Shown here piece by piece: positions 2,568 through 63,580 of a stretch of DNA of 64,000 bases. The notes below the pieces were generated by a model. The model did not search any database and was not told the origin of the DNA. It saw only the letters and a program-made list of their open reading frames with translations. Origin of the DNA: a virus; the IMG/VR virus record IMGVR_UViG_3300009509_000014, positions 9,904-73,903 of that record, one strand, 5' to 3'. The translations under genes were made by a program, and so were the position numbers. Each line of letters starts with the position of its first letter. Within the stretch, counting starts at the first letter, position 1.

Positions 2568-3758
2568 TCATCCTCCTATCGTAATTGGCGGGTATAGTTG
2601 GCCAATCTGTTTAGACTTCGACCCAGGACTGACGCCATGAACCAGTGCGTACATTTGCTTCTTGTGGAGCGACACACCCATCGTCTGATATTTTGGAGAT
2701 TCGCAAGTGCATCCATAGACCGAATATGGGCAGTACGGATCGCCACATTCGCATACATTTTGAACGGACTTTCCACATTTCACGCACATATTTTTCCCCG
2801 CTATGTCGTATGTAGAATTTGTACTACTGCACTTTGCGACAGGACACTTCCCGTATGGCTCATTTAGCATCATACCACACTTCGCACAGTACAGGCCAAT
2901 CATCCCATACGGAGTTACTCCGGAAATAGCATTGGCCATAGCTGTTAGAATTGGTACGGATGCAAGCGGGTTAGAACTTTTCTTTTCTGGCTTGAATATC
3001 TGTCCAAAATCTCCAAAAACGTCTTTGCCTTGCCGCTTTAGCCAGAACAGCCTCAGTGAAGTCGTTGCCCATGTTCCTACAGTTTGGCCTTGTGTCATGG
3101 ATGCAATTCGGATATCCTTGTTATTGTACGAACCGTACCCTTCGCGCTGGCACCAATACGAACAGACAAATCCAGTTGGATAAGGGAATTCCTTTGGAAT
3201 CTTCCGATATCTTGTATGGAAGCCATCCCACATTGGCTTCGTTAGCCAGTGAACAACATTATACCCTGGGTATAATGGATCAAGTCCCTTGATATCGAAT
3301 ACGGTTGCAACCACAAGCCCCTTGTAGACAAGTGGCTTTCTGAACATTGCGCCGATGGCGTCTGCAGTGTTTTCCATACGACCGTCAGACAGGTAATAAA
3401 TGTACCGAATTGAGTTACCCCTGATAGTAACGGCGTTGCCGAAATAGCGTTGCAGATCTCGCAGGACCATTCGCCGCTCAGCCGATTCGTCCCAAAATTC
3501 CTGTGGCTTGATCACTGGTTTCACCCAGGTATTGTCGTGGTTAACATGGCCAGTTCTAGACCTCATTTCCCTCATAATTCTTAACTGGAGATCTTTATCA
3601 TACGTCACAAACTTTTGCGAAGCATCGCCAGTATTAGGGTCGTATACATGAAGCCTTAGTCCATGACGCCCCCCAAAAACGGTTACGTTATCAAGCACCT
3701 TGTTTTTCTCTGTATCGTAAAGCCTTGTTGTTGGCCCATCATTCAATGTGACAAGCAT
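2568..3758 (-). CDS. Putative E2 (UBC-fold) conjugating enzyme with C-terminal Cys-rich zinc-binding region
   Basis: LDPLYP..VVHWLTKP...FH...TGFVCS parallels the E2 pattern PxxYP..P.v.F.T..fHPN...G.iCl. Eleven Cys in the C-terminal ~65 aa. AGGAGGTAAG SD. Confidence 0.55.
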   Translation of the reverse strand: MLVTLNDGPTTRLYDTEKNKVLDNVTVFGGRHGLRLHVYDPNTGDASQKFVTYDKDLQLRIMREMRSRTGHVNHDNTWVKPVIKPQEFWDESAERRMVLRDLQRYFGNAVTIRGNSIRYIYYLSDGRMENTADAIGAMFRKPLVYKGLVVATVFDIKGLDPLYPGYNVVHWLTKPMWDGFHTRYRKIPKEFPYPTGFVCSYWCQREGYGSYNNKDIRIASMTQGQTVGTWATTSLRLFWLKRQGKDVFGDFGQIFKPEKKSSNPLASVPILTAMANAISGVTPYGMIGLYCAKCGMMLNEPYGKCPVAKCSSTNSTYDIAGKNMCVKCGKSVQNVCECGDPYCPYSVYGCTCESPKYQTMGVSLHKKQMYALVHGVSPGSKSKQIGQLYPPITIGG

Positions 3759-4313: not shown

Positions 4314-4384
4314 GTTGTACCTCCCGTATACAGGAATTTTTGACGGGCCGAATCACAAAATGTCTGTGACCCGCCCGACTGTAT

Positions 4385-4413
4385 ATTATACTGGAATTGT
4401 CTAACTTTGTTGA
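4385..4413 (-). promoter_or_regulatory. Conserved phage promoter, copy 1 (drives Ubl)
   Basis: TCAACA-AAGTTAGACAATTCCAG(17)-TATAAT. Confidence 0.8.
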
Positions 4414-4940
4414 GAATTACTGCGGATCACCTTGTAAAAGATTGGATGATCTTTTCCAACATACCACCTGTAAGTACTCCCCAATTTGCCATAATCCATT
4501 ATATATTCTGGATAAGACTCTGTAAGTCTTTTATAGGAAATTGTGCCTTCTGTGGTGTTGATCCTTTTACATAATTCCCACGGTACAAGGTAAGCTTCCG
4601 CACTCATACGCCCCATTATTTTTTGTCTATTCCAGTCTAATTTCATACTTGGCATGTCAAGAAATCCTATAGCTACCCATGAAGACATTGGAGCTAGATT
4701 TTCTACAAAATCTAATGCGCGAATTTGATGATCTCTAAATACAGACATTGGCATTGTCCATCCAGAAGCCTTTTTAGCTTCTATGGCGACAAACCTGAGA
4801 ATTTTCCCGCCATTTACAGTAAGCGGAATTCCAACCACGTAGTCGAATGGCTTTAGCGATCTCCCGCAGTCTGGTATTTTTATAGAGAACCCAAGTTTCC
4901 TGAAAGCTAGCTTGCGTTCAAACTTGCTCTTAACGCTCAC
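4401..4940 (-). CDS. RecU-like Holliday junction resolvase (PD-(D/E)XK)
   Basis: KPFDY...AIEAKK...FRDHQIRAL pattern of the RecU family. Confidence 0.75.
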   Translation of the reverse strand: MSVKSKFERKLAFRKLGFSIKIPDCGRSLKPFDYVVGIPLTVNGGKILRFVAIEAKKASGWTMPMSVFRDHQIRALDFVENLAPMSSWVAIGFLDMPSMKLDWNRQKIMGRMSAEAYLVPWELCKRINTTEGTISYKRLTESYPEYIMDYGKLGSTYRWYVGKDHPIFYKVIRSNSQQS

Positions 4941-11988: not shown

Positions 11989-11994
11989 CTAGCT

Positions 11995-12023
11995 ATTATA
12001 CTGGAAGATGTTAACTTTGTCAA
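11995..12023 (-). promoter_or_regulatory. Conserved phage promoter, copy 2
   Basis: TTGACA-AAGTTAACATCTTCCAG(17)-TATAAT. Confidence 0.88.
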
Positions 12024-12043
12024 TAAATCTTCAAAAGATTGTA

Positions 12044-16803: not shown

Positions 16804-16810
16804 TTTTTAT

Positions 16811-17180
16811 AGTCCAGCTTCGCTATGCAACTTGCGTTGCATGGATTCTGGTATGTATCTACGCCTTGGGTCAAAATTGATCCTACTCCCCCCTGTCCCA
16901 AAGGAACAGAGAGGAGTTTTGCAAGGCACCTGCCGAAAAAGCAGGGCGATCCAGGTCGTTACGTGGGCGGGTGAATCCCACTAATTTACTCTACCTTGCA
17001 ACTCCCAGCAAAAGCTAACGGACGGGATATGTTGTTCTTGTTTTATATCTAACAAGATTAACTCTGGATTTTTACCCTTCTAAATTGATATCGTTGCTTA
17101 GATCAACGTCAGTTTATAGTTGGGTCAACTGACTCCGAGTTTACGGCAACCTCTACGCACTACATGTGCTGCCTGGGACT
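16811..17180 (-). ncRNA. Large structured RNA (~370 nt) immediately 5' of tRNA-Ala, family unknown
   Basis: Ends pair (AGTCCCAG/CTGGACT). At least 8 internal helices; G-U pairs fix the minus strand. No credible ORF. Confidence 0.7.
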
Positions 17181-17256
17181 TATGGCATAATAATACTATA
17201 TTTGACATTCCAACTGTTTGTCATTGTAAGTGGTGTTTTATATTCTATTGTTGTCT

Positions 17257-17285
17257 ATACTACTGGAAGAAACTTACTTTGTTGA
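17257..17285 (-). promoter_or_regulatory. Conserved phage promoter, copy 3
   Basis: TCAACA-AAGTAAGTTTCTTCCAG(17)-TAGTAT. Confidence 0.7.
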
Positions 17286-17330
17286 GAACTCTTTTTTACA
17301 TTTCAATCCTGGTTGTTGCGATTCGGAATT

Positions 17331-17717: not shown

Positions 17718-17744
17718 AGTATATTATCCAATATCCCTTTGTAT

Positions 17745-17773
17745 ATTATACTAGAACATGGGTACTTTGTCAA
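17745..17773 (-). promoter_or_regulatory. Conserved phage promoter, copy 4 (leftward member of the divergent pair)
   Basis: TTGACA-AAGTACCCATGTTCTAG(17)-TATAAT. Confidence 0.88.
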
Positions 17774-17796
17774 CAGTTGATTGATGAAAATGTGAC

Positions 17797-44975: not shown

Positions 44976-45760
44976 GTAGGGATAAGTTTATAGTCCTTGA
45001 CGATAGAGTAGAAGTAAGGTGGTCGTCCAGAACGAAGACACATTATGAATCACTAGGTTATGACTACACAATGATGGGTGACTCGTTCAGGGTTGACGTT
45101 ACAGACCTTCCGCCTAAGTCAAAGATGAAGGTTCTTGTACAGTGTCCGGAATGTGGGGCTACAAGAAGGGTAGCTTGGCAATCTATCGTTGATAAGGATG
45201 ATACATATTGCCAGAAGTGCGCTTCTAAAGTTGCAAACTTTGAGGATTTGACCGGACGAACATTTGGGCGGCTATTTGTTATAGCATTAGCAGATCGCCG
45301 TGGAGCTAGAGGGCAGTATTATTATACTTGCCAGTGTGACTGTGGGAATATCACAGAAGTTGAGGGCGGGTCCCTCTCTTTCGGCGCGACTCAATCTTGC
45401 GGATGTTTACAGAAAGAGATTTCTAGTGAGCGTATGAGCCAGATGACGGGCGAGAAAAACGCGATGTGGGATGCAACGAAAAGTGACGAAGATCGGTATA
45501 GTAGGCATACAGAAGCCGATCATAAAAGATGGCGCGATGAAGTCCTTGAACGTGATGGATATGCTTGCAGAAGATGTGGGTCTGAGAAAACCCTTCATGC
45601 ACACCACATATTCCCGTATACTGCACATCCAGAGCTTAGAACGGACATAGATAACGGAATAACTCTATGTAATAAATGTCACTCTGCGTTTCACGGCGGG
45701 TATGGCGCGAATGCAACCAATGTGGAGCTTGAGGAATTTATGGAGGAGTATATTAGTTAG
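44972..45760 (+). CDS. HNH homing endonuclease (free-standing)
   Basis: CPECG..CQKC, DLTGRTFGRL..C.CDCGN..SCGC, RDGY.C..CG...HAHH...NGITLC..CH. Confidence 0.9.
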   Translation: MSRDKFIVLDDRVEVRWSSRTKTHYESLGYDYTMMGDSFRVDVTDLPPKSKMKVLVQCPECGATRRVAWQSIVDKDDTYCQKCASKVANFEDLTGRTFGRLFVIALADRRGARGQYYYTCQCDCGNITEVEGGSLSFGATQSCGCLQKEISSERMSQMTGEKNAMWDATKSDEDRYSRHTEADHKRWRDEVLERDGYACRRCGSEKTLHAHHIFPYTAHPELRTDIDNGITLCNKCHSAFHGGYGANATNVELEEFMEEYIS

Positions 45761-48700
45761 TGGCGACTCCAGTAATCATTGAAGTAAAGGCAAACGCCTC
45801 ACAAGCCAAGCGCGAACTTAATAGCATTGGCGCATCAATGAAATCATTTGGCTCCAGTATACGGTCTGTTATAGCTATGTCTTCACAGGCCGTTACTGGT
45901 GTTCGCCAGATGGCACAGGGATTGCAAAACCTTGGTTTTACCATGTCTGCCATGATTGGCTTGCCAGTCGCAGCCGCTATGAAGAATATTGCTGAGGAAG
46001 CAACATCATTCGAAAAGGCTATGGTTGAGGTTGAAAAGACCACTGGTATTGCCAAGAAAGAGATTATGGATTTGGGCGAGCAGATTCGTGATCTCGCCAT
46101 GACAACGCCAACATCTGCAAGGGAACTTGCAAATCTCGCTGCAGAAGCAGGCCGCGCAGGTGTTGGACTTGGTAACACTCTTGCTGGGAATATTGAGGGT
46201 GCAAAGGCTGAGATTCTGGAGTTTGTCCGTGTTATGGACATGATGCAGGTGTCTACAACGCTTACTGGAACGGAGTCGGCTAAAGCATTTTCAAGAATCA
46301 TAACACTGTTTGACGAGATAGACACAACTAATATTGAGAATTTGGGTTCGGCAATCAACGAGCTAGGTCAGGCTACTTCCGTTTCTGAGGATGAGATCGT
46401 TGGGGCTATGTTGCGTATTGCGCCTGCGGCTGTAACCCTTGATATGACGGCGGCGCAGGTTGCTGGCCTTGCAACTGCAATTACCCAAATGTCAGAAAGT
46501 ATGTCTCGCGGTGGTACAAGTGTTCGCGTTGCCCTTGACCAGATGGCTATCAATTATGAGGAAGCAGCCAAGCTGATCGGGGTAAGTACCGAAGAGATGA
46601 AGAGCCGCATGAATGACGAAGCGTTGCCTGTCTTCATGGAGCTTGTCTATGCTATGGGGCAAATAGACGATGCGACAACGGCAACTGCCGTTGCGGTAGA
46701 TATTTTCGGTACAACTGGTGGCAAGGCTGTAAGGAGATTCGCTGAAGCCTATCCAGAGCTACTAGAATTGATGGCATTGTCAAGCTACGCATTTGAAGAA
46801 GGCACATCACTTCAAACAGAGTTTAATCGTGCGTTAACGGCAACTGCTAGTCAATTTGATATCCTCAAGAATGCAATTACAGAGGCGGGGTTAAGATTTG
46901 CTGATGACCTGCTCCCAATCGCGCAGGAGATAATCTCTGCATTGATACCAGCCGTCCAAGAACTAGCCGATTGGGTTGGGAACCTGACAGTGGAGCAGAA
47001 AATGCTTGCCGTTGGGATTGCAGCCTTGGTAACAGTCGGGCTTCCACTTTTGGCCCTGCTAGGTTCAATAGGTTTTGGGTTCTCAATGATCATCAACGGT
47101 GCTGTGAATTTAATAGGTGGTATCGTTGGATTAACCGCGACTGTTCTTACTTTTGGCGGGGGCCTTGCTTCGTTAAGCACAATAATAACAGCACTCGCTG
47201 CACTTGTCGGAGGAGTACTTGTAGCGAAACTCATTGATGGCGGGAAGGGATTTGATGTCATCATGGAAAAGTTGCGCGAAGTTGCAAGTGGGGCATTTGA
47301 TTGGGGCGAAAATTTAATCGCTAATATTGCAGAAGGTATAGTCTCTAGTGCGGCAACTGTGCTAGTGAATGCCCTGGAGTTTGTTGGGAATATAATCTCA
47401 AGTTTCTTGGAAGGTCACTCGCCTCCAGATGTTGGACCTCTTAGCACGATTGGTGAATGGGGTGCTAGACTTATAGACACTTATCTGCGGGGGTTCTTTA
47501 ACGCAGATTTTAGTGTGCTGAAAAAAGTTTCTGGCATAATATCAGATGTACTACAAACATTTGTCGATATTGGCAGAATTCAAGATATAGATTTTGGGCC
47601 AATGCTTGCAAGCGCAAGAACATTCGTTGCAGAGTTTATTAACACATTTAATAAAACTGGTGTGATATCCGAAAGCATATTAAGTAAAATCTCTAGTATG
47701 CTTGGGGAAACTGGCGACGAAATAACTAAACTATTGCGACTGCAAATGCAATACAACCAGGCTGTAAAAGAACTTGACAGAATTCGCCAAAGCATGACCG
47801 ACATAGAAGAATCTTACAGCGCAGAAGCCAGGGCAATCGCTGCGCGTACAGACCTTACAGAAGCAGAGAAGATGGTTGCGATTCGCTCTGCAAAGAAACG
47901 TCGCGATCTTGCCCTTACAAATGCGGCAACAGAACGCGATGTGGCCCAGGATAATGTTGATAGCCTTAAAGATGAGGTTAGTTGGCAAGAACAATACATT
48001 GGCGCGATGCAGGATCAGGATGATGTTCTTACGGATCACATGAAGGTTATTAACAAGCTGACAAAGGCCATAAAGAGTGTTGGGAATGCTGTAAAGTCGC
48101 TTGCAGATAAGATTCGCGACTTGATAGCTGATCTTCTAAAACAGCTTGCATTGAACGAAAGGCTCAAAGAGCTTTATGAAAGCAAGGGAATGGACACAAC
48201 TCCGCTACTTAGAGAAGAGTTGAGTCTTCGCAAAAGACTGGTTAAAGCCCTGATGGAAAAGAAGCTTATGTTCGAAGAAATGAACAAAGAGCTTCCAGAG
48301 TCAGACTGGCTTAGCCTTTCGGCAGAAGAAGAAGCTATGATTAGCACCAATCTGGATCGCATACAAGAACTTGAAAGCTATCTTGACTCTCTTTCTGGAG
48401 CAAAGTCGGTCAAGATTCCATCAATTGATACGTCGGACGCCGATAAGGCGAAGGATGCAATAGACGACACAATCTCTCAGCTTTCAAGGCTTGGGAGTAC
48501 AGTGTCAAATGTTTTGGCAGAAGGTCCAAAGTTTTGGGAGGCCTTCAAGGCTGGGTTAACCGGAGGTACAATTGAGCCAATTGTAGCTGGGATTGATCCG
48601 AAAGATGCCAAGGGTGGCCTTCAAGAGTTTGGACAGATGTTTATCCCTGAGCTTGATTCTACATCTGCCAAGTTCTATGAGTGGGGACAGAAGATAAAAG

Positions 48701-51585
48701 AAGTCATTGATAAAGTCAAGACGAAAATTGAGGAGTTGACAACAGCTTGGGAAACTGCAAAAACTAAAATAACTACAACTATTGACAATCTCAAGGGTTC
48801 GGTAGATAGAATCTTTAGCGGTGGGAAGGTTGGTGCTACCGCAGGCGACATAGTTCCTGGCATACAGGAATTTGGGCAACAGTTCATTGTGGCCGAAGAT
48901 GCCACTATGGGATTTGGAGAGAAGATTAAGAAGCTGCTCCCAATCCTTGCTGCCGGTGGAGCAGCACTGTTTGTGCTTCGTGGACCGTTGCTAAAACTGC
49001 TAGGATTGCTTGCAGGAACAGGTGTTGTTGGAAAGTTTGGTTCAGCAATAGGGGGGCTTGTTGGTCCTAATGGGCCACTTGGAAGTTTGGCAGAATGGGC
49101 AACTGAGAGCCTTGGGATATTCCCGAAGATGAAGAGTGGTTTGGGGGCATTGACTGGGGTTGCTGGTAAGGCGAAGTCTGGATTTGTTGGTATGGGAGAG
49201 GGGCTTGCCAGGATTCTCGGTGTGGCATCAAAGAAGGTTGTAACCTTCATCAACCTGTTTGGCGCTAAGGGTGGCATAAAGGGTGCCGTTGCTCAGTTCG
49301 GCGGATTGTTAAAAAGCGGTGTCGGGAAAGGTCTTACTGGAGTATTGTCTCTCGCTAAAGGTGGAATTGGGACACTTATTGGGAGTATTGCATCTTCAAT
49401 CGGCCCGATTGTTGCTACAATTGTAAAATTTATTGGCGCATTTACTGCAATTGGAGGCGCTGTTATTGCGGCCATAATTGCTGTAGTCGCAACCATTAAG
49501 TATATGAAGGATCATTGGGAGGACTTTAAGGATTCCTTTATAGAAATATGGGATAACATAAAATCTGCCATTAAAGGGTTCGTTGACAGCTTTAAGAAAG
49601 CTCTTGGTATCACCGGAGAGAAAGGTATAGATTTTAAGAAAATCCTTGATGACATTTATAAAAAGGCAGAGCCTGTTGCTAAATTCTTAGCTGGCGCATT
49701 TACAAAGGCACTCCTTGTTATTAGCGGACTCCTTAAAACAGTATTGCCTGCTGTTGGCAAGGCCATTGGTGGGATATTCAAGGGCATTACCTGGGTTGCG
49801 TCTGGAATCTTAGATGTGCTTAGTGGTATTTTCAAGTTCTTTGAGGGATTATGGCACGGAATTTCTGATGGTGATTGGTCAATGCTTACAGACGCCTGGG
49901 AAAAGATTAAAGAGGGTGCCAAAGAAATCTTCGGCGGGATTGCCGTTGCAATTGGTGGTGTCTTTTCAGGTATATATGATGTTGTTGTCGGCGTTGTAAG
50001 GAATATCATAGACAGCATTAAGAAGGCAATTAGCGGAAACAAATTCCTGTCTTCGCTGTTTGGCGGTATAGGCGAATGGTTTAATAAAGTCAAGCAGTCG
50101 TTCCAGCCTGTAATTGATACGGTTAAAAATGTAATAGCCTATGTGAAGAAGGCATACAAGATTGTTAAAAGTGCATTTAGTTTTGGTGGAGCAGTAAAAG
50201 GCTTTGCCGCCTTGGCTAATGTTATTAAGCCACTAAAGAAGGTGCTAGGGCCAGTTTTGGAAGTATTCTGGAGGCTGTGGAAGGTTGTCAGCCCACTCAT
50301 TGAAGCATTTAAGTCTGGATTTGCAGAGGGTGGATTTAAGGGTGCGTTTGAGAAAATTAAAGAGATATTGCCAGAGGTACTAGGGAATTTGTGGAAATTA
50401 CTTGGCAGTCTTGTAACGATGGTTCCGAAGATGCTCTCAGGAATAGCCCAAATGCTATGGCCTTGGATTCAGAATACACTAATTCCTTGGGTAATGGGGG
50501 TTGTAAATACTGTTTGGGAATATCTAAAAACGAATGTTCCAATTTGGGTAACGGCAATCTTAGCAGCCCTTGGAGTACTTGTTGCGAAGTTATGGTTGTG
50601 GATAACAGAAACGCTAATTCCTTGGGTTACTGGCATGATTTCACAGGTTTGGACATATATAAAAGATAACGCGCCAGTTTGGCTGAAGGCAATTATGGCC
50701 GTTCTTGAAACCGCAGCCGTTGCGATGTGGGGGTGGGTTTCTGGAACATTGATTCCTTGGGTGGTAGATGTAATTAAGAAAGTTTGGGATTATCTAAAAG
50801 AGCATGGACCTGACTGGATAGCCAAATTCCTAGAGATATTGGCGACAGTAGCAGTTGCAATATGGGGCTGGATAACAGAGACACTTATTCCGTGGATTGT
50901 AGATGTTATAAGAACAGTTGCAGATTATATAGCAACGAATGGACCAAAGTGGCTAGCAAAACTCGCAGTTGTATTAAGGAGTCTTGCCGTGAAACTTTGG
51001 AACTGGATAACTACGACAGTAGTGCCGTGGCTGAAAGATATAATTGACAAGGGTAAAGAATGGCTTGGGAAGATTGCAACAGAGTGGTGGGAAAAAGTTA
51101 AGACTGGACTTAATAAGATAAGGGAAAAGTTCAGGACTATATTTGAGTCTATAAAAACAATCATAGCGTCTGCACTCAAGACTGCGATCAACGGAATGAT
51201 TAGCGCACTTGAGAGAGGTATAAACAAGGTTGTTGATGGAATAAACGACTTTATCAAGAAAATAAACACTATCCTTACAAAGATGGGGATTGGTGAAATT
51301 GGGCTTCTTGGCAAGATCAGTATCCCAAGACTTGCAAAGGGTGGTATTGCCATACAAGAACAATTGGCAATAGTTGGCGATGTTCCAGAGGCAATTATAC
51401 CGCTTGACAGATTGCCTGACTTTATGGGTGTAGCGAACCAGGCACAGCAGCCAGTGCATATCGAAATAAGGGACAACACCGTGCGGAGTGAGGACGACTT
51501 GCAGCAAATAATCCGCGCCGTAGAAAGGCAGTTGGGGATTAGCCTTGGAGCAAAAAGAAGGATGCTGTCTAGGAGCTTTGGATAA
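45760..51585 (+). CDS. Tape measure protein (TP901-type core)
   Basis: 1941 aa, helical; FEKAM..V.KT core, TM segments, Trp-rich repeats, LAKGGI...IVG...PEAIIPL. Confidence 0.93.
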   Translation: MATPVIIEVKANASQAKRELNSIGASMKSFGSSIRSVIAMSSQAVTGVRQMAQGLQNLGFTMSAMIGLPVAAAMKNIAEEATSFEKAMVEVEKTTGIAKKEIMDLGEQIRDLAMTTPTSARELANLAAEAGRAGVGLGNTLAGNIEGAKAEILEFVRVMDMMQVSTTLTGTESAKAFSRIITLFDEIDTTNIENLGSAINELGQATSVSEDEIVGAMLRIAPAAVTLDMTAAQVAGLATAITQMSESMSRGGTSVRVALDQMAINYEEAAKLIGVSTEEMKSRMNDEALPVFMELVYAMGQIDDATTATAVAVDIFGTTGGKAVRRFAEAYPELLELMALSSYAFEEGTSLQTEFNRALTATASQFDILKNAITEAGLRFADDLLPIAQEIISALIPAVQELADWVGNLTVEQKMLAVGIAALVTVGLPLLALLGSIGFGFSMIINGAVNLIGGIVGLTATVLTFGGGLASLSTIITALAALVGGVLVAKLIDGGKGFDVIMEKLREVASGAFDWGENLIANIAEGIVSSAATVLVNALEFVGNIISSFLEGHSPPDVGPLSTIGEWGARLIDTYLRGFFNADFSVLKKVSGIISDVLQTFVDIGRIQDIDFGPMLASARTFVAEFINTFNKTGVISESILSKISSMLGETGDEITKLLRLQMQYNQAVKELDRIRQSMTDIEESYSAEARAIAARTDLTEAEKMVAIRSAKKRRDLALTNAATERDVAQDNVDSLKDEVSWQEQYIGAMQDQDDVLTDHMKVINKLTKAIKSVGNAVKSLADKIRDLIADLLKQLALNERLKELYESKGMDTTPLLREELSLRKRLVKALMEKKLMFEEMNKELPESDWLSLSAEEEAMISTNLDRIQELESYLDSLSGAKSVKIPSIDTSDADKAKDAIDDTISQLSRLGSTVSNVLAEGPKFWEAFKAGLTGGTIEPIVAGIDPKDAKGGLQEFGQMFIPELDSTSAKFYEWGQKIKEVIDKVKTKIEELTTAWETAKTKITTTIDNLKGSVDRIFSGGKVGATAGDIVPGIQEFGQQFIVAEDATMGFGEKIKKLLPILAAGGAALFVLRGPLLKLLGLLAGTGVVGKFGSAIGGLVGPNGPLGSLAEWATESLGIFPKMKSGLGALTGVAGKAKSGFVGMGEGLARILGVASKKVVTFINLFGAKGGIKGAVAQFGGLLKSGVGKGLTGVLSLAKGGIGTLIGSIASSIGPIVATIVKFIGAFTAIGGAVIAAIIAVVATIKYMKDHWEDFKDSFIEIWDNIKSAIKGFVDSFKKALGITGEKGIDFKKILDDIYKKAEPVAKFLAGAFTKALLVISGLLKTVLPAVGKAIGGIFKGITWVASGILDVLSGIFKFFEGLWHGISDGDWSMLTDAWEKIKEGAKEIFGGIAVAIGGVFSGIYDVVVGVVRNIIDSIKKAISGNKFLSSLFGGIGEWFNKVKQSFQPVIDTVKNVIAYVKKAYKIVKSAFSFGGAVKGFAALANVIKPLKKVLGPVLEVFWRLWKVVSPLIEAFKSGFAEGGFKGAFEKIKEILPEVLGNLWKLLGSLVTMVPKMLSGIAQMLWPWIQNTLIPWVMGVVNTVWEYLKTNVPIWVTAILAALGVLVAKLWLWITETLIPWVTGMISQVWTYIKDNAPVWLKAIMAVLETAAVAMWGWVSGTLIPWVVDVIKKVWDYLKEHGPDWIAKFLEILATVAVAIWGWITETLIPWIVDVIRTVADYIATNGPKWLAKLAVVLRSLAVKLWNWITTTVVPWLKDIIDKGKEWLGKIATEWWEKVKTGLNKIREKFRTIFESIKTIIASALKTAINGMISALERGINKVVDGINDFIKKINTILTKMGIGEIGLLGKISIPRLAKGGIAIQEQLAIVGDVPEAIIPLDRLPDFMGVANQAQQPVHIEIRDNTVRSEDDLQQIIRAVERQLGISLGAKRRMLSRSFG
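50458..51040 (+). repeat. 135-bp (45-aa) tandem repeats in the tape measure protein
   Basis: WxWITETLIPW units begin at 50458, 50593, 50728, 50863 and 50998. Confidence 0.85.
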
Positions 51586-56395: not shown

Positions 56396-56401
56396 ATTGA
56401 C

Positions 56402-56430
56402 TTGACATCAATAAATGCCTGTACTATAAT
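56402..56430 (+). promoter_or_regulatory. Consensus sigma70-type promoter
   Basis: TTGACA-17-TATAAT. Confidence 0.85.
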
Positions 56431-56461
56431 TAGGCATAGGCATTTTATTTAGGAGGGTTTT

Positions 56462-57373
56462 ATGGGTGGTTGGAAAGACTTACCTTACAAAGTTAGAGAT
56501 AGATTGCTTGCACAGAAAATCGCTGGAGTGCCAGTTGAAGAGCTTGCAGAGGGCATTGGTGTTAGACCTACAACTCTTGACAGAAGACTCAGGGAATGGG
56601 CAAAAGTGAATGATACGCGCAAGTTGAGAAGGCCAAAGAACGAATATACAAAATGGAATGAGCCGCCAGTGTTTAGCGGAGATGCTACAATCGCTGGCGA
56701 TTTTCATTTGCCATACCTTGATTACAAATTCGCAGAGATCATGTTGGCAACATCAGCTATACTACTACCAGAACCAAGGCGACTTATTATTGCAGGCGAC
56801 CTATTTAATATGGATGCCTTTAGCTCATTCGGGGCTATGGAGATAGCCCCATCATTTAGAGATGAACTTGACGCTGCAGCTAGGTTCCTAGAGGATGCCT
56901 TGAAGGTCTATGACTCAATAGAGGTATTTCTTGGCAACCACGAATTGAGGTTTGTTTATAAACTACTTGGGCAGGTTGGAGGGGCAGAGCTTGGGAAGCT
57001 TGTTGGGGTAGATAAGGTGAGATTCCACGAATACTCGCATTGTATATTGTCAACGGTCACTGGAGAGTGGAGGATTACACACCAAAGGAATTTTAGTGTA
57101 AACTCTCAGGCAGTTGGCAGGAAGCTGGCACACAAATTCAGGCAGCATATAATCACTCACCACCAGCACAAGGTAAGCAAGGGGTTCGACGATTCTGGCA
57201 AAAGTATTATTATTGACAACGGATGCCTGGCAGATCAGTCATACTTCGATTACGTGAACAGGATTGACAACACATCTCCGTTAATGATGCAGAGTTTTGT
57301 CATTGTCAGGAATGGTGTTGGCAATTTGTTTGCAAATGATAAAGGATTCACGGACTACTCATTTTTAGGATAG
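56462..57373 (+). CDS. Calcineurin-like metallophosphoesterase with N-terminal HTH
   Basis: GDFH, AGDLFN, GNHE, THQ, HHQH; ELAE.IGV...TL.RRL. Confidence 0.88.
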   Translation: MGGWKDLPYKVRDRLLAQKIAGVPVEELAEGIGVRPTTLDRRLREWAKVNDTRKLRRPKNEYTKWNEPPVFSGDATIAGDFHLPYLDYKFAEIMLATSAILLPEPRRLIIAGDLFNMDAFSSFGAMEIAPSFRDELDAAARFLEDALKVYDSIEVFLGNHELRFVYKLLGQVGGAELGKLVGVDKVRFHEYSHCILSTVTGEWRITHQRNFSVNSQAVGRKLAHKFRQHIITHHQHKVSKGFDDSGKSIIIDNGCLADQSYFDYVNRIDNTSPLMMQSFVIVRNGVGNLFANDKGFTDYSFLG

Positions 57374-57375
57374 AA

Positions 57376-57424
57376 TAAAAAAAGGCACAGGGCTTACTCA
57401 AATCGCTTCGGCCCTGTGCCTTTT
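57376..57424. terminator. Bidirectional terminator at the convergence of the two arms
   Basis: A7-GGCACAGGGC...GCCCTGTGCC-TTTT. Confidence 0.85.
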
Positions 57425-57958
57425 CGGTTCCTGGCGTATTGCGCGATCTGGCTAAACCTGATAGACTTCAGTTTGCCTGGAACCTTATATTATCCGCGTC
57501 CACCCGTTCGTTCAGTCGCGACATATAAGTCCTACTAGGGCAGACGCACGTAGGACTTTTTTCGCGAAGCTGGTTTTGTGGCCCCCCGATTCGCACCCTA
57601 GAGTAACCAAATCTGCAGTTGGTCTACACCACGCGCCGCTTGATTCATTTATATAACGCCGAGTGCGTGTATTCCCTTTCGTTGCTTGAGGTATCACCCT
57701 CACCACAACGAATTTCGCGCGATCTTGTTACAGGTGCCGAGAAGGTCTCATTTTCCAAGGTCGGACCTATTTACCCGTTTATTCCTGTGCAGTGTCTGTC
57801 CTCAACAGTTCATTCCGCTTCCCCTGGGGACTTATGCGATTCCGCTGCCAGGGGCTTTTGGACTTTCCTGTCGATTCATCCAGCACAAATTAAGCCCAGG
57901 CTTCAACGGGAGCCTAGCGTTACCCTGCTAAAACCATCACCCCGCTTTTGCCCTACGC
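57425..57958 (-). ncRNA. Large structured RNA (~540 nt), family unknown
   Basis: Bounded by promoter copy 5 and the terminator. Many helices and long-range complementarities; no credible ORF. Confidence 0.72.
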
Positions 57959-57960
57959 AT

Positions 57961-57989
57961 ATTATACTGGAGTAACTGTACTTTGTTGA
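57961..57989 (-). promoter_or_regulatory. Conserved phage promoter, copy 5
   Basis: TCAACA-AAGTACAGTTACTCCAG(17)-TATAAT. Confidence 0.8.
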
Positions 57990-57992
57990 GAA

Positions 57993-58760
57993 TTATTCAA
58001 CTTTTGATCCCAATCTCTTTGTGAACCAATCAATAACTTGATCTGGCCAGTTTCCGTCTAGTACGAATTTGTACTCTTCCAAAACATACTGATCGCCACC
58101 GTCCTCCGTGTATTCTCTGTACACAATCCCAGTTCTAGCGGCGACATCAAACGATGATGTGATCTTCGTCTCGCGGAGTACGTCGTATTTTATATACTCC
58201 AACGCACCGGACTTTGAACCCGTGTCTAGTGCTTTGTTGACCGTATCTTGCCATGAGTTGTTTTCAAGTGCTAGGTTATCGCTACCCTCATCGGCAGACG
58301 CCAACTTCGATGCTGCGCCAGAGCTTAAAAGCAATAACTTGAAGGCAGACTCTGGTATAACTTCCCTATCGTCACAAAGTACACGATACACTTTTAGCCT
58401 ACTGAATAACGTCTGCCTACTTTTCCCTGTCATGTCTGCGACATATGACAAGTACGCCTCTAGTGTTGGATATACAGGGATATCAGAAACACTTAGTGTT
58501 CCACCACCACACTTCGGGCAAGTATCATCTGCGCCGTCAAATACAAACCCGCAAGAATTACACTTTGACTCTGGCGACGTTAGCTGGAGGAAGAGCTTGG
58601 AACGCCAGACCATATATAGCCTGGCCATTCCACGCTCAACCACAAAATTCCCGACAGCAAGCTCTCCGATGATAGTATCGGTATCTTCTACTATGTCGCC
58701 AGTTAGCGTTGGGAATGACGCATCCTGAATGATCAGGTCTTTAGCTCCCATCTTCTTCAT
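57993..58760 (-). CDS. Hypothetical protein with zinc ribbon
   Basis: CNSCG...CPKCG. Confidence 0.75.
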   Translation of the reverse strand: MKKMGAKDLIIQDASFPTLTGDIVEDTDTIIGELAVGNFVVERGMARLYMVWRSKLFLQLTSPESKCNSCGFVFDGADDTCPKCGGGTLSVSDIPVYPTLEAYLSYVADMTGKSRQTLFSRLKVYRVLCDDREVIPESAFKLLLLSSGAASKLASADEGSDNLALENNSWQDTVNKALDTGSKSGALEYIKYDVLRETKITSSFDVAARTGIVYREYTEDGGDQYVLEEYKFVLDGNWPDQVIDWFTKRLGSKVE

Positions 58761-59643
58761 TCTTTTCGGAGGCTGCTATAAATTCAGCAAGTGCTACCTC
58801 CCACGTTTTTTCACCAAGGGACCCTGTAATCTCTAGTGCCTGTTTCCAGGTAACCTCCCCTGCTGAGATCGTCTTGGCAACATTGTTAAGTAGAAGCAAC
58901 TGCCGAGCAGACAGATTCTCAATGGACTTCACTTTTTTGTCACCAACAATAGCTTGCAGGCTATTACTCACAAACTCTGAAAGTCCTGCAGTCTTAATCG
59001 CCGTTTTAATTTGTGCAACAAGACCTTTCCGGTGGGCTGCGGCAAGTTCATTCTCTTTTGCAATAGCATCATAGGTATCCGGAGCCTCAAGGAGCATTTT
59101 CTTCATCAACAGCTTGATAAGATTAGATTCGTCGGCGGGGGTTGCCCCACTATCGCTTTTCAGAACAATCTCCCCATCACTTGTCGCCAGATTCCCTTTA
59201 TAGGCGTCTATACCAACCCCCATTCTGGAAGCTGCCTTGCCCAGTGCATTACTGATAGCACTTTTCTGTGCATCTGATACGGGGACGCTTCCACTCCCCT
59301 TTGCATTTCCACCAACCCCATATATAGGCTCCGACCACACAGAACTAGCATCTTGTAATGGAGCAAATGTTTCTTGCATTGGGTCCCAAACAAAAGGTTT
59401 CGTACCTTTATCTGTAACTCTATATTGCAGTGCAACCTCTGTAACAATTTCCTTGCCGTGTTCTACAAACGGTGAGTGAGAGTATCTCCACCCCATTCCC
59501 AGTAGGCCAAATACATTATTTAGTCGCTCTATAACAAACGCACCACGGATTCCAATAAGCGGGAATCCACGGCTCTTGTCTGTATTATAAGCGTTTTGAG
59601 GAAACTCGGCTGATAGTGCCGTGTAAATCTCTTTCGTGTCCAT
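58741..59643 (-). CDS. Rad52/Sak-family single-strand annealing protein
   Basis: VIERLN.VFG..GW, DA.KSA.SNAL.KAA..MGVG.D.Y. Confidence 0.88.
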   Translation of the reverse strand: MDTKEIYTALSAEFPQNAYNTDKSRGFPLIGIRGAFVIERLNNVFGLLGMGWRYSHSPFVEHGKEIVTEVALQYRVTDKGTKPFVWDPMQETFAPLQDASSVWSEPIYGVGGNAKGSGSVPVSDAQKSAISNALGKAASRMGVGIDAYKGNLATSDGEIVLKSDSGATPADESNLIKLLMKKMLLEAPDTYDAIAKENELAAAHRKGLVAQIKTAIKTAGLSEFVSNSLQAIVGDKKVKSIENLSARQLLLLNNVAKTISAGEVTWKQALEITGSLGEKTWEVALAEFIAASEKNEEDGS

Positions 59644-59644
59644 T

Positions 59645-60043
59645 TTATTCTACCTGTAAGCTCCTTAAAAAATCTTCTTTTGTAATATTGAACGCCGTTT
59701 TGTCGGCATATTCCCACACCTTTAGTGGGCATTGTGGGGTTAAGAGAAGGGGCGTAACTATCGTATAATCCTTCTCGTCTCTTTTCCCAGGCCATATCAT
59801 AAAATGATCGCCTGCAAAACACCTCCAACACTTCTGATCCGATACGATATATCCGTCCGATTGCGAAAGCATTTTTATAATGTAGTTTTTTGCTGTATCT
59901 TCGCCATACATCGGAGGCGCATCAGTCTCTACAGGCTCCAACTTTGCACTACTGCACTTTGGGCAGGCGTCTAGTGCATATCCCAGGTTATTCCAAAGGA
60001 TTTCACATTCTGGACAGTACCACTTGGTAATTTTCTTAGTCAT
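59645..60043 (-). CDS. Hypothetical zinc-ribbon protein
   Basis: CPEC...CPKC; CWRC..H..C. Confidence 0.7.
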   Translation of the reverse strand: MTKKITKWYCPECEILWNNLGYALDACPKCSSAKLEPVETDAPPMYGEDTAKNYIIKMLSQSDGYIVSDQKCWRCFAGDHFMIWPGKRDEKDYTIVTPLLLTPQCPLKVWEYADKTAFNITKEDFLRSLQVE

Positions 60044-61467: not shown

Positions 61468-61824
61468 TTATGCAACACGTAGAGGGACTGCGTTATCCTT
61501 CGCCAAGTCTGTTGCAAACGAATCCCATACGGGAAATAGCGTTGGTGCCGAATATGTATACCAGTCCTTTGACCGATCAGGCGATCTCCACTTTACTGCG
61601 TGAGGGGTGTCAACGATAATTCCGTTGGCCCTCATTGTCAAGATTGCTCGCTTCACAAGCGAAAGGTCATAACCGTCTCGCTTGAGGAGCTTCGCCTTTG
61701 CCATAATCGTCCTAAACGCAGAAGACTTAACATCTACGTCTGCCTTGGTCTGCGGTTGGCTAAACCACCACACCGCAAACATGAATATGTCATTTACTCT
61801 TCTTTTTTGTTCCAGTGTTCCCAT
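61468..61824 (-). CDS. Hypothetical protein
   Basis: Co-oriented, overlaps the upstream gene. Confidence 0.6.
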   Translation of the reverse strand: MGTLEQKRRVNDIFMFAVWWFSQPQTKADVDVKSSAFRTIMAKAKLLKRDGYDLSLVKRAILTMRANGIIVDTPHAVKWRSPDRSKDWYTYSAPTLFPVWDSFATDLAKDNAVPLRVA

Positions 61825-62612
61825 GTTCGTCTGGCGACTTCCTGCCTCCTTCCTAACAGTGATCGGCTAATACCAGATTTTCTGGCGACGATTGACCGCC
61901 AGCCAGTTCCATCCCTTTCCTGGTACGCCTCCACCGCTAGATCGTAAATGCTAATATCAGCATACTCTCCGTTCAGGACAGTTGACACATAGCCAAAGAC
62001 CTTCCTTGCCAGTGTCGCCATCATTCTGAACCTTACCTTTTCCTCTGCAGCTATCAAATCCTCTGCGCCGAATGTATACCCAAGGACCGTTTCTATCATC
62101 AGGCCATCATCATCGCCTCCACCAACCGTGTCAAGACTAAAGGCTAGATTCCTGTTTTCCGTTGCGTCTGCCTTGGCTGCATCAGCTAGTGCATTCTTTA
62201 CGATAGTTATGGCCCATGTTCTGAACGACCCCTTTCGTTGGTCGTACTGTTTGAAATTCTTTACCATGCTGAACAAGGCTTCGGCCAGCGCGTCTTCTAC
62301 AAGATGAAGCGGCAGGTTATGTCCGGACGCATAAGAGTAAGCATACCTCCGGATTATGTCGATATTCTTATGGCCCCTTGGCCCCGCATCTTCGAATAGC
62401 TTCTTTACGATCATGCGGTTGTAGATAACGGTTGATCTCTTCCTCCCGCATTTGCACTTCGAAGACTCAACAACAATCTCCCCGCACATGTCACATTTCC
62501 AGGATGATACCCTTTCTGCCTTACAGTTCGGGCAGTCCGAATAGGCCGTTACTGGTGACCTGCACTTCGGACACCACCAGACAACCTTCTTTGCCACACC
62601 CCTTTCATTCAT
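61794..62612 (-). CDS. Sigma70-family factor with N-terminal double zinc ribbon
   Basis: CPKC/CPNC/CDMC/CKC; region 2 EDALAEA..YD..KGSFRTWA...VKN.L.D; C-terminal HTH VARKSGISRS. Start moved to MNERG (GGAG SD). Confidence 0.75.
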   Translation of the reverse strand: MNERGVAKKVVWWCPKCRSPVTAYSDCPNCKAERVSSWKCDMCGEIVVESSKCKCGRKRSTVIYNRMIVKKLFEDAGPRGHKNIDIIRRYAYSYASGHNLPLHLVEDALAEALFSMVKNFKQYDQRKGSFRTWAITIVKNALADAAKADATENRNLAFSLDTVGGGDDDGLMIETVLGYTFGAEDLIAAEEKVRFRMMATLARKVFGYVSTVLNGEYADISIYDLAVEAYQERDGTGWRSIVARKSGISRSLLGRRQEVARRTWEHWNKKEE

Positions 62613-62614
62613 GG

Positions 62615-62755
62615 CTATAACACTCCGAAGATCAGGGCTGCTGCCCCAATCACAACTATAAACGGTGCAGCTACAAGTAGCAATCCACCTACAATCGCCA
62701 CTAACAGAATTGCCGACGCCAACCATACAAGTAGCCTAATTGTTATATTTAGCAT
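62615..62755 (-). CDS. 46-aa hydrophobic membrane peptide (not in the ORF track)
   Basis: MLNITIRLLVWLASAILLVAIVGGLLLVAAPFIVVIGAAALIFGVL; exactly fills the gap between recombinase and sigma genes. Confidence 0.7.
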   Translation of the reverse strand: MLNITIRLLVWLASAILLVAIVGGLLLVAAPFIVVIGAAALIFGVL

Positions 62756-62758
62756 TTC

Positions 62759-63580
62759 CTACCCCCTTGAAATCGCGATGGATTGTATTGCTTCCCTCAT
62801 GGAACCACGATCAGGATGAATGTAATTCATTGTGGTTGTTACATTCGCGTGTCCCATAAGGGCAGATATCTTCGGCAGCGACAGGCCAGCTTCGTCAAGC
62901 CTGTTAGCGAACGTATGACGCGCACTATGGGGAGTTACACCAACAATACCCGCCTTTTCCGCTAGCCGACGGAAGGTGTTTAGTACAAAATTGTACGAAA
63001 CTGGCTCCTTCCCCCCGTTTGTGAAAACATAGCTGTCTCCAGCAGCCGCCAAGGTTTCTTGCAGCTTTTTTGACAAGTCTCTCATTTCCTGAGTTGTAAA
63101 AACTTCAATCTCACGGTCGTTCTTTACCACTAACTTGAACGACTCGGCGGAAAGGTCCTTATACCTGATCATTGGAATTGATCCAGCCCTTAACCCTGTA
63201 TCGAACAGGAGTATAGTAACAAGTCTGTCTTCGACTGTCTCAGCCGCCGCAACGAACGCCTTAAGCTCTTCTAAGGTAAACGCTCTTCGTTTCTTTGGAG
63301 GCCTTCCAGCCGGTACGGAGATTGTGTCAAGAAGCGTTGGGGAGTTACATTCTCCAATAGATACCTTGTACTTGACAAGTCTGCGAAGGGCTGACATTCT
63401 GATCGTTATTGTCGATCTTGAAAGCTCTCCCCAGGTAGCGACTATCTTCTGTACATTCGTGGCCGTAAGCTCTATTCCAACAAAGTCAGACAGCGCAGAA
63501 CGATATGTCTCTACCGTGTGTATATTATACAGGAAGTTGACAACTTTGTCAACATCGTCATTGGAGACAATCGACATCAC
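62759..63580 (-). CDS. Tyrosine recombinase/integrase (XerC/D-like)
   Basis: TGLR, K, HSARHTFA, MGHA..TT.NY catalytic residues. Confidence 0.93.
   Translation of the reverse strand: MMSIVSNDDVDKVVNFLYNIHTVETYRSALSDFVGIELTATNVQKIVATWGELSRSTITIRMSALRRLVKYKVSIGECNSPTLLDTISVPAGRPPKKRRAFTLEELKAFVAAAETVEDRLVTILLFDTGLRAGSIPMIRYKDLSAESFKLVVKNDREIEVFTTQEMRDLSKKLQETLAAAGDSYVFTNGGKEPVSYNFVLNTFRRLAEKAGIVGVTPHSARHTFANRLDEAGLSLPKISALMGHANVTTTMNYIHPDRGSMREAIQSIAISRG

Follow-up and report, generated by a model that had tools for sequence, protein, structure and literature searches.

A candidate gene for a large, folded non-coding RNA where two gene modules of an uncultivated sediment phage converge

At the point where two gene modules of an uncultivated phage converge lies a unit of about 575 nucleotides (nt) that appears to encode no protein, and we wondered whether it is a gene for a large structured non-coding RNA (ncRNA), a part of a neighboring transcript, a replication signal, or an element that acts as DNA. 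The phage is known from the 73.9-kb IMG/VR virus record IMGVR_UViG_3300009509_000014 (estimated completeness, 60%), of which the right-hand 64 kb, here called the window, is the whole stretch of DNA analyzed. A sequence-only reading of the window had proposed, at positions 57425 to 57958 and on the minus strand, a stand-alone, ornate RNA with its own promoter and terminator, of a new class or a divergent member of a known one. The unit displays the generic traits of a conserved structured ncRNA gene, namely, compensatory changes, the lack of an open reading frame (ORF), transcription signals of its own, and presence in RNA libraries; together with the lack of an Rfam match, these findings support the core of that proposal. 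That the unit is a genuine structured ncRNA gene is highly probable, and the best explanation overall, toward which we lean, is a free-standing gene for a large folded ncRNA of a sediment phage that would act in trans.

The structural comparison comprised three full-length sequences, those of the window and of the loci L002 and L017, and one partial sequence (L003/L010), the syntenic loci having been reached through the flanking genes. In the alignment of the full sequences (A3), which was made with MAFFT and no structural input, five helix segments fall into perfect register in all three RNAs. Counted over these three sequences, 39 pairs in helices P2, P3, P4, and P6 are 98.3% paired, and 19 of them have changed on both sides, so the covariation on which the earlier proposal had made itself depend is present. 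None of 500 shuffles matched this support on the same alignment, and slid controls, in which the 3′ partners were moved by 1 to 3 columns, were 33 to 49% paired, with at most three covarying pairs. Enforcing the consensus helices costs only 3 to 6 kcal/mol relative to the free minimum free energy (MFE) fold. By our own tally of the per-pair table, 26 of the 117 paired cells are G.U, which would be A.C on the opposite strand, indicating that the functional RNA is the minus strand.

The resulting architecture is a three-way junction clamped at its base, followed by a 3′ loop domain (Table 1). Helix P1 is present independently in the free MFE structures of all three full RNAs with differing pair identities (AGGGC/GUCCU, GAGG/CCUC, and GGGGC/GCUCC); its support is moderate because its register is not fixed in the MAFFT alignment. 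Of the 14 pairs of P2, eight have changed on both sides, with 97.6% of the cells paired, and its P2b part, UGGUUUU/AAAACCA in the window, reads UAUACAC/GUGUAUA in L002 and UGAUUUU/AAAAUCA in L017. The domain I arm is closed by P3, with compensatory changes in two of six pairs, and contains the conserved, formally unpaired GGGCUUAAU at 57897-57889; in the window it also holds an inserted branch of about 90 nt, including CCCCUGG/CCAGGGG and GGAAAGUCC, that is absent from L017 and L002. In domain II, the eight pairs of P4 are 100% paired, two of them compensatory and three invariant G.U pairs. A conserved CGAA bulge (57593-57590) separates P5 from P4, the inner hairpins vary, and the large loop carries AAAUGA(G)AAU (57655-57641), with AAAUGAGAAU conserved and unpaired. 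In the 3′ domain, the 11 pairs of P6 are 100% paired and include seven compensatory ones, and when the partial fourth sequence is added, all six core pairs change on both sides. P6 encloses the most invariant block of the family, about 32 nt long (UAG-UAGGRCU-UAUAU-GYC-GCGAC-GAACGAA, 57537-57506). Within it, the stem of the mini-hairpin P7 has changed from G-C to A-U in the window while its UAUAU loop is unchanged, and both P6 and P7 hold in the partial fourth homologue. The best-conserved nucleotides of the RNA are formally unpaired: GGGCUUAAU, the J3/4 strand (AAUNAGAC), the CGAA bulge, the domain II loop, and the P6 loop (UAGGGCUAUAUGCC..GACGAACGAA). The arm tips of domains I and II, instead, are variable or tolerant of insertions, and RNAalifold applied to these two arms alone gave no trustworthy common inner structure.

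All complementary strings listed in the sequence-only reading occur in the sequence, and their fates under comparison differ. The P2b pairing is the sole helix among them that the homologues back. CCCCUGG/CCAGGGG, UUCGUUGU/GCAACGAA with its UGAGG/CCUCA cap, and GGUUCC/GGAACC are real in the window but lie in parts that the relatives lack or replace. The proposed pseudoknot between the 5′ UAGGGCA and UGCCCUA is not conserved in the relatives, nor do they keep UCGCGA/UCGCGA and AAGUCCUAC/GUAGGACUU. Over these three pairings, 60% of the cells pair, mostly the window’s own, and 73 of 500 shuffles do equally well; moreover, they overlap and compete with the covarying P1, P2a, and P6.

Table 1. Coordinates of the RNA unit, its structural elements, and its surroundings in the window, with the syntenic loci used for comparison
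Feature	Position in window	Strand	Remark
Promoter	57959..57995	minus	TCAACA-17-TATAAT at 57989-57961
Promoter-motif copies	4383-4419, 11993-12029, 17255-17291, 17743-17779, 57959-57995, 63522-63558	all minus	
Predicted transcript, ~575 nt	~57954 to 57377	minus	start predicted ~7 nt past the -10 element; 3′ end in the U-run
P1	AGGGC 57954-57950 with GUCCU 57556-57552	minus	anchors the 5′ end at the fold’s base, ~400 nt downstream
P2, 14 bp plus 2-nt bulge	57564..57945	minus	joins segments ~350 nt apart; closes the three-way junction
P2a	57945-57939 with 57570-57564	minus	
P2b (UGGUUUU/AAAACCA)	57936-57930 with 57577-57571	minus	
Domain I arm	57756..57927	minus	closed by P3 57927-57922/57761-57756 and P3b 57910-57905/57779-57774
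J3/4, conserved A-rich single strand	57745..57755	minus	GAAAAUGAGAC in the window, CAAUAAGAC in relatives
Domain II arm	57582..57744	minus	closed by P4 57744-57737/57589-57582 and P5 57736-57733/57597-57594
3′ domain, P6	57495..57548	minus	57548-57538 with 57505-57495
P7, 3-bp mini-hairpin in P6 loop	57531-57529 with 57522-57520	minus	
Extra hairpin GGUUCC...GGAACC	57426..57484	minus	this phage only; in relatives P6 leads directly to the terminator
Intrinsic terminator	57377..57420	minus	hairpin GGCACAGGGC...GCCCUGUGCC 57420-57384 plus U7 57383-57377
Main RNA-run contigs	57426-57943, 57477-57943, 57418-57948, 57386-57942		four runs
255-aa ORF	57993-58760	minus	stop codon bounds the RNA locus on its 5′ side
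Convergent 303-aa metallophosphoesterase ORF	56462-57373	plus	stop codon bounds the other side of the RNA locus
L002/L015			IMG/VR 3300009509_000068; full RNA, ~470 nt
L017			metagenome contig Ga0180438_10055245, from metagenome scan; full RNA, ~465 nt
L003/L010			IMG/VR 3300010413_000201; 3′ 200 nt of the RNA

As the sequence-only reading had claimed, the minus strand between the two flanking ORFs holds no credible ORF, only short, unconserved frames. When all stop-to-stop frames were compared among the homologues, no reading frame proved conserved; only short matches appeared, in several frames and on both strands, at blocks conserved at the nucleotide level, and the insertions and deletions between homologues are large and do not come in threes. 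From its sequence, then, the unit reads as non-coding. ARAGORN found no transfer-messenger RNA (tmRNA) or tRNA in it, and a search of Rfam 15 with the 751-nt region or with L017, L002, and L010 returned no family, ROOL and GOLLD included, at gathering scores or even at E ≤ 10, terminator look-alikes aside. Complementarity of the RNA to the rest of the window stays within chance (best match, 14 nt; E = 0.11), which argues against an antisense role.

Sequence of the unit is also present in RNA libraries. Four metatranscriptome runs from two studies hold 15 to 20% of the words of the 3.3-kb stretch around the locus, and the main matching contig of every run, 467 to 557 nt long and 100% identical to the window, is confined to 57386-57948. 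At 57942-57948, slightly short of the predicted transcription start, all four come to an end, without loose ends or joints. Three short contigs (182 to 261 nt, word depth 2 to 3) fall in the flanking ORFs, and none of them joins an RNA contig. Word depth is 15 to 33 on the RNA contigs versus 0 to 3 beside them, a difference that is uninformative about silence or expression level and was not used as evidence. The confinement of the RNA-run contigs to the unit gives a weak hint of a discrete transcript, in line with the earlier proposal.

Transcription signals frame the unit on both sides. The proposed promoter of its own stood up to scrutiny: it consists of a −35-like TCAACA (57989-57984), a conserved AAAGT box, an 11-nt spacer, and CCAGTATAAT, with the −10 element at 57966-57961, and reads as sigma-70-like. 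A longer motif, TTGACA/TCAACA-AAGT-N11-CCAGTATAAT (repeat family D5), occurs six times on the minus strand, this promoter being one of the copies, and the core pattern of the motif has 7 matches in the window versus 0.5 expected. Other copies precede replication and nucleotide metabolism genes, a shared promoter type that suggests coexpression of the RNA with them. At the far end, the strong terminator predicted earlier is confirmed as a hairpin followed by a U-run, but the 57425 limit is not: because the terminator lies beyond that coordinate, the predicted unit extends about 45 nt past it, to ~57377. Because TTTT follows this hairpin on the plus strand, the hairpin reads as a bidirectional terminator that would also end the convergent late operon. 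L017 and L002 have identical AAAGT-N11-xxGTATAAT spacing and hairpin-and-U-run ends in equivalent places, as judged by reading their sequences by eye; a simple promoter/terminator scanner called no sites in these two loci because their −35 hexamers are weak and their terminator loops long. The claim of ornate folding also holds, the minus strand of the unit folding at −209 kcal/mol (z = −4.0), with none of 100 shuffles as good. The L002 RNA folds with z = −3.6, and the GC content of the unit is 0.515 versus 0.45 for the window. A separate observation concerns the plus-strand structural block: no copy of the motif precedes it, the motif family being found only on the minus strand, and it may depend instead on the phage’s sigma-like protein (61794-62726).

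The host genome of this unit is that of a tailed phage remote from cultured phages, with a large terminase only ~25% identical to its nearest relative. Its minus-strand modules, at 1 to 17.7 kb and 58 to 64 kb of the window, encode a sliding clamp, a RecA/UvsX-like protein, SSB, ribonucleotide reductase, dUTPase, an exonuclease, and methyltransferases, as well as a DnaB-like helicase, a sigma-like protein, and a tyrosine recombinase. The structural genes form a plus-strand block from 18 to 57.4 kb, and the RNA locus is the meeting point of module and block. Within this block, a 38-nt motif recurs in four copies with a 135-nt period (50456-50898) inside a 1,941-aa ORF (45760-51585), which points to a 45-aa protein repeat; the product is probably a tail or tape-measure-like protein. 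Between 90 and 100% of the sampled words of 56400-59700, the 3.3-kb stretch around the RNA locus, are present in DNA runs of several studies, from marine sediment, mangrove, sludge, and other metagenomes, three runs among them not being flagged as a possible source sample. This distribution suggests that the phage, or its host, is widespread in habitats resembling sediment.

In the databases searched, homologues of the RNA turned up in close relatives only, which marks the family as rare. Across the syntenic loci the flanking proteins are 63 to 75% identical, but the RNAs are linked by nhmmer only at E = 0.017; nhmmer and blastn barely join even true homologues of this RNA, whose length in the relatives is about 460 to 475 nt versus ~575 nt in the window phage. 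Neither blastn (“distant”) with the RNA region nor tblastn with the 255-aa neighbor found anything among 50,697 GenBank phages. Three DNA-pattern scans of IMG/VR returned the two known relatives and chance matches only (L004-L009, L011-L014, L016, L019, and L020), L019 and L020 being rejected as homologues since both lie inside coding sequence. Pattern and protein scans of GTDB genomes were both empty, and the helicase and the 255-aa protein gave no matches as single queries in IMG/VR. In G001, a more distant phage (90% complete) with a phosphoesterase 32% identical to that of the window, the RNA core (model R1) and the 255-aa protein are both absent. The distant relative L023, with its 32%-identical phosphoesterase, has no RNA at 3356-3750, where the convergent junction consists of a spacer of ~130 nt and a 64-aa ORF. 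Two related IMG/VR contigs break at the RNA locus: L003/L010 ends inside the RNA, which is why it carries the 3′ 200 nt alone, and L015 starts 70 nt before the 257-aa gene. These breaks could reflect chance, difficulty in assembling a region that is variable or structured, or the end of a genome.

The 255-aa protein encoded next to the RNA has a CxxC...CxxC zinc ribbon and a helix-turn-helix-like motif, GKSRQTLFxRL. It has 20 homologues, all metagenomic, and its gene precedes the RNA in all four loci, an association that rests on close relatives. The protein belongs to no Pfam or PHROG family. Foldseek with a confident AlphaFold model (pLDDT 87) found no PDB match, and a PDB profile search returned zinc-ribbon noise only. 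VIA-align gave middling rows only (TAL repeats; Spo0J/ParB/KorB), with Z = 4 to 6.6, within the tool’s stated noise, and the Atlas matches are viral hypothetical proteins, along with DUF3102 at 0.89.

Could the unit be something other than an independent RNA gene? It lies exactly where the minus- and plus-strand modules converge and shares a bidirectional terminator, as would a long, structured trailer at the 3′ end of the upstream operon, or a buffer between the convergent arms that stabilizes mRNA or blocks read-through. However, in each of the three full loci a complete promoter motif with conserved spacing separates the RNA from the stop codon of the ORF, no RNA-library contig bridges ORF and RNA, L023 handles the same convergence with its short spacer, and a trailer has no need of a covarying architecture that spans 400 nt; such a role is very improbable. 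Slimmer still is the chance of a DNA-level element (att, pac, or ori) or of hidden small protein genes, a reading that could appeal to the two related contigs ending at or inside the locus and to the existence of a 118-aa plus-strand frame. A compensatory change that preserves a G.U pair makes sense for just one of the strands, no frame is conserved, and the repeats or inverted-repeat arrays typical of such sites are absent, so that covariation and frame comparison largely refute it. Relation to a diversity-generating retroelement (DGR) or to a repeat was likewise rejected by a repeat analysis of the window. We give more credit, while still regarding it as quite unlikely, to a role in replication or maintenance, in which the RNA, like ColE1 RNA II, would be a structured pre-primer or would control copy number, working with the replication module and the 255-aa DNA-binding-like protein. 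ColE1 RNA II is a structured transcript of ~550 nt with its own promoter beside replication functions, and the unit is of similar length. It sits at the end of the minus-strand module with the DnaB-like helicase, an exonuclease-like gene, the sigma-like factor, and the recombinase; its 255-aa neighbor has weak ParB/Spo0J/KorB-like structural matches (Z = 4 to 6); and RNA and protein occur together in four of four loci and are jointly missing from G001. Those structural matches, however, are within the noise described by the tool, and the long-range covarying helices and invariant loops are more than a primer needs. The RNA ends in a strong intrinsic terminator and not at an origin, no iterons or repeats lie in or beside the unit, and no AT-rich tract was seen in the sequence read; both the terminator and the missing repeats speak against a primer like that of ColE1. 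A ColE1-type RNA II/RNA I replicon proper was rejected, given the terminator and the lack of a conserved antisense promoter in the window or its relatives.

Accepting an independent RNA, one may ask whether it is a catalyst. A new large ribozyme is the main rival to a binding or scaffold role; the P6 loop, J3/4, and the CGAA bulge would make up its active site, and it would cleave, ligate, or modify RNA, either itself or, like RNase P, in trans. The strongest conservation does lie in unpaired regions framed by covarying helices, a pattern typical of catalytic cores, and a promoter and terminator of its own make action in trans possible. Binding surfaces fit the same pattern of conservation, though, no Rfam ribozyme family matches, and the RNA-library contigs run unbroken over 57386-57948, with no joint or internal end, which leaves a ribozyme unlikely. 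Several known classes were rejected outright. The CR-I-like GGAAAGUCC (57868-57860) recalls RNase P, but it lies in the insertion found only in the window; since the relatives lack that branch and no RNase P model matches, the resemblance was judged to be chance. A group I or group II intron was rejected because no intron model matches and because the unit, with a promoter and terminator of its own, is bounded by a stop codon on one side and a convergent gene on the other; a tmRNA was rejected by Rfam and ARAGORN.

Among known RNAs, comparison with large phage RNAs is the most instructive. ROOL, a large (~580 nt) RNA with an elaborate fold, is encoded by phages and prophages and often, though not obligatorily, lies beside tRNAs, and neither a function nor a protein partner is known for it; GOLLD rises during phage lysis; and ROOL, GOLLD, and OLE assemble with themselves (PMC12286853). 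Like ROOL (RF03087), the window RNA is large, ornate, phage-borne, and a stand-alone transcription unit, and like GOLLD (RF01998), it is phage-encoded and large, with a well-conserved 3′ part and other parts that are more variable; where GOLLD rises in lysis, the window RNA has the promoter type of phage replication genes. It might therefore be asked whether it is a very divergent ROOL or GOLLD, of similar size, that the Rfam models missed. Yet the window RNA, L017, L002, and L010 match the ROOL covariance model at no threshold tried, GOLLD’s model gives no match either, and neither the 751-nt query nor the homologues reach E ≤ 10. The window’s tRNAs are limited to those at 15.0 and 16.7 kb, ~40 kb from the RNA, with none inside or beside it. 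The helices of the window RNA are arranged differently from those of ROOL, with P1/P2 clamping a three-way junction and a loop domain on the 3′ side, and the RNA is shorter than GOLLD’s 800 nt or more. The lack of a ROOL or GOLLD model match and of a tRNA neighborhood points to a new family rather than a member of either, and we see next to no chance of a disguised relative. With OLE and 6S RNA the window RNA would share a stand-alone, stable, and highly structured nature, and its conserved unpaired nucleotides could by analogy form a protein-binding surface; it has no sequence or model similarity to them and is phage-encoded, whereas they are encoded by cells. From ColE1 RNA II it differs in its intrinsic terminator and in having no conserved antisense partner and no origin features. 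A 2023 catalogue of csRNAs in IMG/VR (“DNAVirus_X”) lists intergenic regions with covariation, requires at least 3 regions per element, and contains elements of 29 to 151 nt (PMC10690425). It draws on the same kind of data, and the window RNA family just reaches its three-region minimum; because the csRNAs are so short, the catalogue could list at most a fragment of this RNA.

How might such an RNA work? If it is the product of a free-standing gene, it may act in trans as a stable, compactly folded particle, and its two ends, locked in P1 and in the terminator helix, suit a stable RNA. In J3/4, the CGAA bulge, the domain II loop (AAAUGAGAAU), and the P6 loop, the unpaired nucleotides that do not vary would come together as a tertiary core or a binding surface. 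Made alongside the replication and nucleotide metabolism genes that have the same promoter type, the RNA could sequester or scaffold a host or phage macromolecule, or it could assemble with copies of itself like ROOL, GOLLD, and OLE. We put forward this binding or scaffold mode only tentatively, by analogy; base-pairing to a target, priming of DNA synthesis, and peptide coding seem less likely. It is also tempting to speculate, with greater doubt, that the RNA is the first of a new class of large phage RNAs that act independently of protein. It would then be a novel ribozyme, or an assembly of RNA alone such as a dimer or cage, and its active site or the contacts between its subunits would lie in the invariant P6/P7 loop and the A-rich junctions. 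To our knowledge, nobody had foreseen the protein-free quaternary assemblies that cryo-electron microscopy (cryo-EM) revealed for ROOL, GOLLD, and OLE.

A number of points weigh against a large trans-acting RNA of this kind. The RNA-run contigs give no strand, true ends, or level of an RNA, and three full sequences and one partial one are too few for statistics of R-scape grade. A scan for further conserved pairings (4- and 5-mers) did not rise above permuted controls, and no tertiary contact was detected. G001 does without the RNA, which is thus dispensable for that lineage. Finally, the proposed mode of action draws on analogy with ROOL, GOLLD, OLE, and 6S.

The window holds a second candidate RNA region, at 16804-17250 on the minus strand, where the promoter copy at 17255-17291 is followed by ~450 nt. 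Apart from a single GTG frame of 40 aa, this region has no ORF of at least 40 aa; its fold has z = −4.6, and a tRNA-Ala gene (16803-16727) begins right after it. It has no Rfam match and is unrelated to the core of the RNA at 57377-57954. Two RNAs that are both large and structured may accordingly be encoded by this phage.

Large RNAs whose elaborate folds are conserved but whose function is unassigned are rare, and this family, new and unrelated to ROOL or GOLLD, comes with a tractable definition, its promoter, terminator, helices, and invariant loops having been mapped. Its existence in nature has some support from the RNA libraries, and its size suits in vitro transcription and cryo-EM. If the protein-independent interpretation were true, the phage would use this RNA, together with its replication genes, either to commandeer a host process or to protect one. 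The second candidate, with the same promoter type and beside a tRNA, hints that such RNAs are a regular part of the early program of this phage. Taken together, the findings suggest that phages of anoxic sediments carry ornate RNAs of their own.

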